This document shows positions 1,502 to 5,660 of a stretch of DNA of 6,539 nt, in pieces. The stretch covers positions 1-6,539 of the IMG/VR virus record IMGVR_UViG_2690316002_000006; one strand, 5' to 3'. Both the position numbers and the translations under genes were made by a program. The DNA comes from a virus. Lineage: Duplodnaviria; Heunggongvirae; Uroviricota; Caudoviricetes. A model generated the notes under the pieces. That model made no database searches. It had not been told where the DNA came from and was given only the letters and a program-made list of their open reading frames with translations. Each line of letters opens with the position of its first letter. Position 1 is the stretch's first letter.

Positions 1502-1687
1502 ATGTCATCGAAAAACCGGACCCGCAGAACCACAACCCGCAATATCCGTTTCCCCAATCACATGATTGAACAGATCAACATCGCCCTTGAGCATAAAGGG
1601 TCCGGTAACTTTTCAGCGTGGGTTATTGAAGCCTGCAGAAGAAGGCTGTCAACAGAGCGTTCGGGTATGAATTACATAATTAAGTAA
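1502..1687 (+). CDS. Small ribbon-helix-helix-like protein (resembles YlcI/YnfO-type small prophage proteins)
   Basis: 61-aa ORF with a strong Shine-Dalgarno (GAGGAAAG, 5 nt before ATG). Basic N-terminus followed by NIRFPNHMIEQINIALEHKG...FSAWVIEACRRRL, consistent with a strand-helix-helix DNA-binding fold. The only convincing plus-strand gene in the window. Family name is from memory. Confidence 0.65.
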   Translation: MSSKNRTRRTTTRNIRFPNHMIEQINIALEHKGSGNFSAWVIEACRRRLSTERSGMNYIIK

Positions 1688-1816
1688 CATGGTGTTCACA
1701 GAACACACAGTTACCGGACACATCAGTTTTCCATTCGTCCCCCGGCAGTACAGGCTTCCCGTCTGACGGGATAGCCTGAAAAAACACAGAAAATTATTTG
1801 TTATAATTAATATAAC

Positions 1817-1957
1817 TTACTCAAAAAAAAGCGACGAGAAAATCAGCATCAACGAGCAATAAGCGCCAATACGTGATAACAAATGGCAGCCATATTTATC
1901 TGCAGTATAAGCAATGGACAGGATAACCACACCAGAAACCGTCAGCATAAAATCCAT
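1817..1957 (-). CDS. Candidate 46-aa hydrophobic micro-protein (below the ORF-track size cut-off)
   Basis: Manual translation: MDFMLTVSGVVILSIAYTADKYGCHLLSRIGAYCSLMLIFSSLFFE, with two hydrophobic segments. ATG at 1957 preceded by GGGGAAG 5 nt upstream. Lies in an AT-rich stretch; could be a chance ORF. Confidence 0.25.
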   Translation of the reverse strand: MDFMLTVSGVVILSIAYTADKYGCHLLSRIGAYCSLMLIFSSLFFE

Positions 1958-2313
1958 TTGAACTTCCCCGGACAAAATCGACTCATCTAAAGATTTACAG
2001 CTCTTTTTATTATCAATATGTTAAAAGTAAAATAAACAGATGTTCAATAATACGAATACAAAAACGTGCTGAAAATCAATGAATCCATTTCTGTGTTATC
2101 AATTAATAGTGATAAACATCCGGCTTCTTCCACCATCGCACCGGACCAGCGACCATGAGGGGACAACGCCGCGCTCCGTTAACGCGGTAAACCCCGGTGT
2201 GTATCGTTTTTGATTATCCCCGCACACTCGCGCAGAGGATTCTCCCGGTCGGGCTGCGGTCTCTGTTAATGCAGGAATACGGCGACAATACCGCGCATGA
2301 ATAATAAGGTCGC

Positions 2314-2538
2314 TCAACACACTGGCTGTAATGCAGCGGATACCATGCGGCATTTAGCGGCATTCATCGTACACTCAACGGTTAGCTCTTCATTCGTGGC
2401 ATTCACCTGAAAGGTCCTGGAGTGTAATTGCGTACATTTACCACTGAACGAACCTTCAACAAGAACACGACCACGCTGCAAAATACGGAACGGAATTGTT
2501 CCCTGAAAAGGCTTTACGGTTACCAATAATTTCTTCAT
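2314..2538 (-). CDS. Hypothetical 74-aa protein with four cysteines, immediately downstream of Rz
   Basis: ATG at 2538 preceded by GGAGA with 4-nt spacing, only 24 bp after the Rz stop. Translation MKKLLVTVKPFQGTIPFRILQRGRVLVEGSFSGKCTQLHSRTFQVNATNEELTVECTMNAAKCRMVSAALQPVC. The ORF-track version (2314..2556) starts at an upstream TTG; the ATG is preferred. No family recognised. Confidence 0.55.
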   Translation of the reverse strand: MKKLLVTVKPFQGTIPFRILQRGRVLVEGSFSGKCTQLHSRTFQVNATNEELTVECTMNAAKCRMVSAALQPVC

Positions 2539-3020: not shown

Positions 3021-3257
3021 TCGGTTTATGCTCACCCCACCAGCCCTGCCGAAGTCAACGCCATCCAGGTTATGGAAAGAAAAAGAACAACCAGCATTAG
3101 TGAAAATGAAATACCGACGATTACACAAAGGCCCTTCGCCAGCATTATGAGTTTGTCTGACATCTTTACCCCTTAATAGCAGTAATTAACCGGGCAACCA
3201 CCCATAAAAACGGAATCAGCCAGACCAGCAAAAATTTCCAGTCCGTTTTTATCATCT

Positions 3258-5159: not shown

Positions 5160-5366
5160 TTACTCTCCCCGCGCCGCCTTACGCTTATCTTCTTTAATCT
5201 TGAAATAAAGGTTAGTCAGATACGTCAGCAGGCCAAACAGCAGACTCCCCAGCACACCGATTGCCACCCACTGGGACGGAGAGACTTTGTCCAGCAGCTG
5301 CAGTAACCAGTATCCCGTCCCCACCGCTGACGTGGTGTATGACACACCCGTTGTGATTTTTTCCAT
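5160..5366 (-). CDS. Phage-21-type pinholin (class II holin)
   Basis: From ATG at 5366: [68 protein letters not shown], near-collinear with S21/EssQ (two TM segments, charged C-terminus ...KAARGE). The ORF-track version (to 5435, GTG start) adds 23 residues of doubtful reality. Confidence 0.8.
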
Positions 5367-5621
5367 CTGATGTATGTCTCCGTCACCGCCGACAGAAAAT
5401 GAAAGTAAAGGAAAACAAAAAGCCGCCAGTGTCACCCACTGACGGCCAACTCCGGGAGCCGTGATTATGGCATTCAGGCTCTGCTAAAAATGCCAGATAA
5501 CATTCCGACCAACCCCTGATTCAGGTTATAAATGACACAATATCTTGACAACATCCGTCACTGTCTGTCAGAAAATGTACTGCCAAATATAAGTATCATG
5601 TGAAGTACATCTACCCGTTTT

Positions 5622-5660
5622 AGCCAGCGTCCTTCAGAGTGGGCGCTGGCTTTTTTTATT
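5622..5660 (+). terminator. Plus-strand intrinsic terminator abutting the 3' end of the upstream minus-strand gene
   Basis: AGCCAGCGUCC (5622..5632) - 8-nt loop - GGGCGCUGGCU (5641..5651), an 11-bp stem with one G-U pair, followed by TTTTTT(A)TT on the plus strand. On the minus strand the hairpin is followed by AAAACGGG, so it is not a minus-strand terminator. Confidence 0.5.

Follow-up and report, generated by a model that had tools for sequence, protein, structure and literature searches.

A 46-codon ORF at the lysis/packaging junction of Escherichia coli lambdoid prophages probably encodes a lysogen-expressed inner-membrane micro-protein carried on a small AT-rich moron

Does a hydrophobic ORF of 46 codons, located between the lysis and packaging genes of an E. 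coli prophage, encode a protein, and if so, is that protein a membrane toxin, part of the lysis machinery or something else? The window, meaning the whole stretch of 6,539 nucleotides that was analyzed, represents the late region of a lambdoid prophage of E. coli and is shown in the orientation opposite to late transcription. Its minus strand carries, in order, a SASA/DUF6645 esterase, a class II (S21-type) holin (5160-5375), a DUF1327 protein, a lysozyme, a KilAC antirepressor, a 43-aa ORF, Rz with an embedded Rz1, a 74-aa ORF (2314-2538), the micro-ORF, an HNH endonuclease and the small terminase subunit. The sole plus-strand gene in the window is the DUF3950 YlcI/YnfO gene (1502-1687; ynfO below), which is the RHH gene to which the earlier note had placed the micro-ORF convergent, and the two are indeed convergent.

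Other features of the window were recorded along the way. Between the esterase gene and the holin (5421-5657) there are two strong convergent intrinsic terminators, one on the plus strand at 5622-5651, with an 11-bp stem and a T7 tail, and one on the minus strand at 5447-5421. EcOnc/anti-sRNA and Pas-type prophage sRNAs have been described at the esterase-holin position (PMC4104026; bioRxiv 10.64898/2026.05.13.724894), and a search of 5421-5657 gave no Rfam match, AgvB, AsxR, Esr41 and STnc100 included. Upstream of the small terminase gene, positions 876-1005 contain five GTTAACAT-type motifs, which form direct repeats and perfect palindromes (such as that of GCCAGTTAACA and TGTTAACTGGC at 984-1005), with a G/C-rich run then following at 1035-1050; these repeats are likely the terminase-recognition or cos region of an HNH-dependent packaging module. 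The 74-aa ORF (2314-2538, minus strand) matches only positions 100-172 of the 291-position PHROG 2571 (E = 3e-28) and, judged by this match, is apparently a piece of a larger protein of phage origin. The 43-aa ORF (3032-3163, minus strand), between the antirepressor and Rz genes, is a second very hydrophobic micro-ORF; it matches PHROG 4906 (E = 7e-24), is annotated in RefSeq and is unrelated to the 46-codon ORF.

The 46-codon micro-ORF occupies positions 1817..1957 of the minus strand, from an ATG at 1957-1955 to a TAA at 1819-1817, as the earlier note had reported, and encodes the peptide MDFMLTVSGVVILSIAYTADKYGCHLLSRIGAYCSLMLIFSSLFFE, which matches the sequence given there exactly. The peptide has a GRAVY of 1.11, and the two hydrophobic stretches that had been noticed in it correspond to residues 3-19 and 30-45, both short at 16-17 residues. 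A plausible, non-canonical Shine-Dalgarno (SD) sequence had also been proposed, and a weak, purine-rich GGGGAAG is present on the minus strand at 1963..1969, 5 nt upstream of the ATG; the CGGGGAA of this region is invariant across all three known alleles. The last codons run through a T8 homopolymer (1823..1830, minus strand), the length of which ranges from T7 to T9 or more and alters only the last one to six residues. By itself, the micro-ORF is within chance expectation: when positions 1690-2110 are dinucleotide-shuffled, 40% of the shuffles contain an ATG-initiated ORF of 46 codons or more, and 3.7% contain one that is equally hydrophobic. The ORF strand is T-rich, which favors hydrophobic codons in any ORF located there. 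Because the ORF alone is not beyond chance, the evidence for a gene has to come from sequence comparison and from published expression data.

The idea that the micro-ORF is unannotated, having been missed as micro-proteins of its size often are, proved wrong. It has been annotated since the genome of E. coli O157:H7 Sakai, where it is ECs_1538 (NP_309565.1; ECs1538 below) of prophage Sp6, with an identical translation, and it is a PGAP call in every RefSeq genome inspected (WP_000347013.1, 'hypothetical protein'). In Sakai, EDL933 and other RefSeq genomes the annotated CDS gives a protein 100% identical to this one, which has the UniRef entry A0A066T8Z3; the GenBank phage record LC567835 leaves it uncalled, an omission limited to some GenBank phage records. 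The protein cluster holds 73 member sequences, and the exact sequence is found on more than 1000 contigs. Many cluster members in the databases are 'partial' proteins of 25-44 aa, and draft assemblies often break in or beside ECs1538, as one would expect where repeated prophage sequence borders on unique sequence. A 421-bp segment around the micro-ORF is present in 734 of 5426 complete E. coli genomes, or about one in seven, usually once in each, the carriers including O157, O145, O121, O111 and O103 STEC together with some UPEC and APEC strains. The whole window is a mosaic that no complete genome contains in its entirety, its best complete-genome match being 97.4% identical over 100% of the window length, and the neighbors of ECs1538 in Sakai are the same as those in the window (Rz, the 74-aa ORF, the micro-ORF, ynfO, HNH and terS). 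In a literature search, the peptide, the WP numbers and the name 'ECs1538' were absent from main texts, and the EDL933 translatome supplements contain neither the micro-ORF sequence nor the ORF. The existence, annotation and translation of ECs1538 are already known. It is not a missed gene: it is publicly annotated, and ribosome-profiling support for it exists.

That support comes from the strand-specific RNAseq and RIBOseq of uninduced Sakai by Huecker et al. 2017 (PMC5597208), where ECs1538 is one of the 250 shortest annotated Sakai genes that reach a ribosome coverage value (RCV) of 0.25 or more. According to their S2 Table, ECs1538 in LB gave 57.6 RPKM of RNA and 26.1 RPKM of RIBOseq signal (RCV 0.46) at a coverage of 0.98, and footprints over 98% of the ORF provide the ribosome occupancy that the earlier note had proposed as a check. 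The same table gives, for BHI, 32.7 RPKM RNA and 7.3 RPKM RIBO (RCV 0.23, coverage 0.81) and, for BHI stress, 2.1 and 0.6 RPKM (RCV 0.29, coverage 0.13); the absolute RIBOseq read counts for ECs1538 are low, at 4-7 in the BHI comparison (PMC5597208). The values for surrounding genes in LB (PMC5597208) are, on the same strand upstream, 10.1 RPKM RNA and 6.7 RPKM RIBO for ECs1536 (RCV 0.68, coverage 0.35) and 3.0 and 2.1 RPKM for ECs1537 (RCV 0.95, coverage 0.18), with 8.4 and 8.4 RPKM for the holin ECs1530 (RCV 1.03, coverage 0.49) and 45.6 and 11.1 RPKM for the convergent ynfO (ECs1539; RCV 0.25, coverage 0.65). By these values, ECs1538 RNA is 6-19 times as abundant in the uninduced lysogen as that of the late genes just upstream, and transcription so far above that of the preceding late genes implies that ECs1538 has its own promoter. 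The S4 Table of the same study (PMC5597208) lists for ECs1538 a BPROM promoter with an LDF of 8.00, the position counting of which is ambiguous, an SD dG of -3.6 kcal/mol 4 nt upstream, no terminator and no kA/kS value, and classifies the gene as 'real'. The TM-helix prediction that the earlier note had called for is likewise available in the PredictProtein table of the PMC5597208 supplement, which places the product in the inner membrane with 2 TM helices.

Comparative evidence comes from few sequences, as homolog searches yield only three alleles, all from E. coli prophages. Allele A is that of the window; allele B differs from it by S14F, C24Y, L36V and E46D; and allele C, MGLMLTIAGVIVLFIACNADKYGYPLLSRIGAYCALILIFSSLFF(E), is 71% identical to A in protein and 81.5% identical in DNA. 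No distant homolog was found in a word-indexed search of 5.8 billion clusters, in a profile search of 1.84 billion representatives, the long hits of which were low-complexity noise, or in GTDB species genomes. IMG/VR, metagenomes and phage tblastn returned only near-identical E. coli alleles of ECs1538, and searches of Pfam, NCBIfam, PHROG and PADLOC gave no match to it (Pfam holin families and PADLOC at E ≤ 1). Along the locus, alleles A and C share 74% identity in the AT-rich leader, 100% in a 35-nt block (2003-2037), 67% in the 45 nt before the ATG, 81.5% in the micro-ORF and 65% in the 3' region, the micro-ORF being more conserved than its flanks (81.5% versus 65-74%; Fisher P = 0.005). 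In the micro-ORF frame dN/dS is 0.25-0.28, lower than in any of the five other frames (0.48-3.0), and the replacements are conservative (V/I, S/A, F/L and M/I), with a small change in hydropathy (simulation P = 0.03). Close haplotypes show four synonymous changes, one non-synonymous change and one ATG>GTG change, after which the ORF still begins with a start codon; across the 21 haplotypes, drawn from 254 loci, there is no internal stop or frameshift, and only the terminal T8 varies in length. The earlier note had asked whether the frame is conserved, and it is kept open even in the allele that is only about 81% identical in DNA. Conservation at the protein level ends just upstream of the ATG, and the six in-frame codons upstream of it, which include a TTG at 1975, are not conserved, favoring the ATG as the start. 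Under a transition-matched simulation (observed bias 19:6), 13 or fewer amino-acid changes are expected with P = 0.14 and a frame that merely stays open with P = 0.69, and the A/C differences fall 8/6/11 by codon position, a mild third-position bias. These comparative tests are low in power because there are only two deep lineages, A/B and C. Taken from sequence comparison, the support for coding appears real but modest, supportive rather than decisive.

Upstream of the micro-ORF, the 35-nt block GTTTATTTTACTTTTAACATATTGATAATAAAAAG (2003..2037, minus strand) is identical between alleles, while its flanks are only 67-74% identical; it contains 0 changes in 35 positions compared with 76 in 239 in the flanks (Fisher P = 8e-6). 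On the ORF strand (minus), the block includes a -10-like GATAAT (2014-2009), located 52-57 nt before the ATG. A sigma-70-like TTTACA-17-TATGTT on the plus strand (1994..2022), the promoter activity of which is only putative, points away from the micro-ORF; its spacer and -10 (TATGTT) fall inside the 35-nt block, and its -35 reads TTTACA in A and B but ATTACA in C. A second sigma-70-like match, TTTTCA-17-TATTAT, lies on the ORF strand (minus) in the AT-rich leader at 2047..2075. The number of sigma-70-like matches in the micro-ORF region is no higher than in shuffles. A Fur box in the 35-nt block was considered and rejected, the best match being only 12/19.

On the other side of the micro-ORF, the region between the convergent genes (1684..1816, minus strand) is structured, with z scores of -3.7 and -3.9 relative to shuffles and with hairpins at 1800-1816, 1751-1778 and 1684-1714 that fill the 129 nt between the convergent stop codons. 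No canonical intrinsic terminator was found after the micro-ORF, only a weak terminator-like site at 1706-1692. The hairpin at 1684-1714 overlaps the ynfO stop codon. Rfam gave no family match anywhere in the window at E ≤ 1, and a search for pairing of the putative divergent RNA with the 5' leader, as in a tisB/istR- or zorO/orzO-like pair, found no complementarity; the only direct repeat in that search was a 10-mer inside the micro-ORF. A 10-nt inverted repeat flanking the micro-ORF (1783-1792 and 2088-2097) was set aside, as it does not exceed chance expectation and allele C does not conserve it.

The micro-ORF and these flanking elements are carried on an AT-rich insert of about 440 bp (~1667..2105, minus strand) that is absent from an otherwise collinear prophage. 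In strain S14 the same ynfO-HNH-terS module occurs without the insert, and ynfO directly adjoins a conserved GC-rich element; in the window the last ynfO codons are replaced by the ~440-bp insert. The insert boundary lies at 1667-1687, within the 3' end of ynfO, and YnfO is 61 aa in the window versus 66 aa in S14, with a different C terminus. With the boundary in the ynfO 3' end and a hairpin over the ynfO stop, the convergent transcripts may overlap. GC content is 27-42% across 1750-2124 and 50-60% on either side. The same insert is found beside lambda-type terminases with ynfO and also beside a third packaging module that lacks ynfO, three packaging backgrounds in all. Its presence in several backgrounds, with or without ynfO, indicates that it moves as one piece and independently of ynfO. 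At the same junction the K-12 prophages carry other cargo, borD/ybcV/ybcW in DLP12 and ydfO/gnsB/ynfN/cspI in Qin, and phage 21 and JLK-2012 carry a TonB-C-like gene; small ORFs at this site in phage 21 and JLK-2012 were examined as possible relatives of ECs1538 and are unrelated to it.

Such inserts recall morons, a concept reportedly due to Juhala and Hendrix, with lambda bor and lom said to be examples. The ECs1538 insert is present or absent between collinear phages, as the comparison with S14 shows, and its base composition is deviant. The published RNAseq shows expression in the repressed prophage consistent with an own promoter, and the promoter-like block is invariant. A factor-independent terminator is the one attribute that does not appear, as none of the three hairpins has a proper U-tail. 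The insert thus follows the classical moron pattern apart from the missing canonical terminator.

Just upstream of the insert lies the mostly unannotated GC-rich element (~2119-2300, minus strand, in the sense of the late transcript). Its identity stays at ~95% even where that of the micro-ORF falls to 81%, and it occurs in 1577 of 5426 E. coli genomes and in 398 phage records, among them Stx phages, phage 21, mEp460 and DLP12, in the last of which it lies between borD and ybcV. Indels that are not multiples of three, together with an old ECs1537 call that PGAP has dropped, indicate that the element is non-coding; it has no Rfam match. Read on the late strand, its variation gives 471 G·U cells versus 9 A·C cells, 98.8% of cells are paired versus 32-58% when the partners are slid, and there is one compensatory GC/UA pair. 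This variation fits long-range RNA helices, and the element is a candidate for a structured RNA that the late transcript would carry between its lysis and packaging genes. The hairpin at the 3' end of the element (UCCGGU...ACCGGA) is the junction itself, and at least six different cargo modules begin after it. At loci L338, L356, L364, L320, L327, L331 and L334 the cargo opens with AAATGATAACCATTATCATTTT, which agrees with the Fur-box consensus at 15 of 19 positions, and in phage 21 and JLK-2012 a gene for a TonB C-terminal domain follows the same element; the Fur-box-like start and the TonB-C gene suggest that an iron-regulated moron may take the place of the micro-ORF insert. A widespread, unannotated and apparently structured RNA with variable cargo at its 3' end has, in our view, more potential than the micro-ORF itself.

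What kind of protein ECs1538 might be is suggested by its predicted fold and by where the alleles differ. AlphaFold2, run on an alignment of three sequences, predicts helices at residues 2-22 and 24-44 with a break at G23, at a moderate pLDDT of 72. The loop and the start of helix 2 are invariant in the three alleles (A19-C34 except positions 24-25; ADKYG..LLSRIGAYC), while helix 1 drifts conservatively. Charges are located at the N terminus (D2), at the C terminus (E46) and in the loop (D20, K21, H25 and R29).

Before a function is considered, it has to be asked whether the locus needs a protein at all. The transcript, or the 35-nt block with the hairpins, might be what is selected, as a promoter, an RNA or an antisense control of ynfO, with the ORF an accident of a T-rich strand that receives incidental low-level translation. 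The frequency of ORFs of this length in shuffles (40%) fits such a reading, as do the small footprint counts, the orphan status of ECs1538, which is without relatives, and a strongly structured 3' region that abuts ynfO; moreover, the most conserved piece of the locus is the non-coding 35-nt block, and amino-acid changes are not significantly few under transition bias (P = 0.14). However, the leader and trailer of the transcript are significantly less conserved than the ORF itself, the frame of which has the lowest dN/dS of six; its replacements are conservative, its one start-codon variant (ATG>GTG) is still a start codon, its conservation falls off exactly upstream of the ATG and 98% of it is covered by footprints. 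We regard the absence of a functional protein as unlikely, and ECs1538 is very probably a genuine small membrane protein.

The earlier note's remark that such a protein can be membrane-active stands to this extent; in the sense of a toxin it is unsupported, as no antisense partner was found and the ORF is translated in growing, uninduced cells. A type I toxin-antitoxin-like module, in which a membrane-toxin peptide would be held down by an antisense or divergent sRNA, for example one started at the plus-strand site at 1994-2022, has in its favor the size and hydrophobicity of the peptide (46 aa, GRAVY 1.11), its prophage location, the back-to-back promoter-like sites within the perfectly conserved 35-nt block and the hok-type loci present in the same prophages. 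Yet the window has no Rfam match at E ≤ 1, the putative divergent RNA has no complementarity to the 5' leader and no plus-strand terminator follows its putative start, and ribosomes occupy the ORF in exponential growth (RCV 0.46), which is unexpected for a silenced toxin. To our knowledge, known type I toxins have one helix, whereas two are predicted in ECs1538, and altogether this type of module is distinctly improbable here. The remaining alternative, an accessory of the lysis cassette (a holin, antiholin or lysis-timing factor) made mainly late by read-through from pR', would agree with an orientation shared with, and a position just downstream of, the genes for the holin, the SAR-type lysozyme and Rz/Rz1, with two hydrophobic helices as in class II holins and with the lack of a terminator between the late operon and the micro-ORF. 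But the true holin of the window (5160-5375) matches Phage_holin_2_1 at 1.4e-32 and is 71 aa long, while ECs1538, at 46 aa, matches no holin family; its expression in the uninduced lysogen is well above that of the holin; and the ORF is found in 734 of 5426 genomes, while the neighboring late-region element is in 1577, a rarity that marks it as dispensable for lysis. A role in lysis is thus very improbable.

We conclude, with a probability of roughly 70%, that ECs1538 is a real protein-coding gene on a ~440-bp AT-rich moron at the lysis/packaging junction of E. coli lambdoid prophages and that its product is an inner-membrane hairpin expressed in the lysogen; the reading of the micro-ORF as a membrane micro-protein is probably right. 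According to this membrane-hairpin reading, the ECs1538 product would form a helical hairpin, the two hydrophobic helices of which span the inner-membrane bilayer. By the positive-inside rule, the positively charged invariant loop would be cytoplasmic and the acidic N and C termini periplasmic (N-out/C-out). The invariance of the loop and the start of helix 2, while helix 1 drifts, makes it most likely that the protein binds a specific membrane-protein partner rather than damaging the membrane non-specifically. Expression in the lysogen, the invariant loop and the lack of tight, toxin-like repression together point to a specific-partner role of benefit to the lysogen as the most likely, if putative, function, and ECs1538 may thus serve the lysogen that expresses it as an accessory protein, of the kind that brings about lysogenic conversion or superinfection exclusion. 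If ECs1538 alters phage susceptibility or membrane function, it would be a small lysogenic-conversion factor. A bolder and decidedly tentative possibility, which we consider more apt to be wrong than right, is that ECs1538 founds a new, E. coli-limited family of two-helix inner-membrane micro-proteins with a strictly conserved promoter and an invariant cytoplasmic loop that acts on a membrane protein of the host or of a phage; the gene would then be a single cargo among several that can replace one another at a recombination junction, which a conserved structured RNA would mark. Were this so, the members of the family might act by blocking the entry of superinfecting-phage DNA or by tuning a transporter.

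With class II holins and the S21 pinholin family (PF04971), ECs1538 shares two predicted TM helices and a location in or beside the lysis cassette; in contrast to them, it has no profile match, is about two thirds of their length, belongs to the accessory rather than the universal genes and is already expressed in the lysogen. Like the type I toxins Hok, Ldr, TisB, ShoB and ZorO, it is shorter than 50 aa, very hydrophobic and located in a prophage, prophages and islands being frequent locations of such toxins. It differs from them in having two predicted helices and a conserved polar loop, in that no antisense or divergent RNA partner was detected and in being translated while the cells grow. 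With the lambdoid morons the ECs1538 insert has in common that it is a discrete insert between late genes, with deviant composition, presence or absence among phages, an own promoter and expression in the repressed prophage, though it lacks a recognizable intrinsic terminator. Compared with Bor and Lom, the ECs1538 product is far smaller, is no lipoprotein and has no homolog, while the borD/ybcV/ybcW moron of DLP12 occupies the very same junction as the ECs1538 insert.
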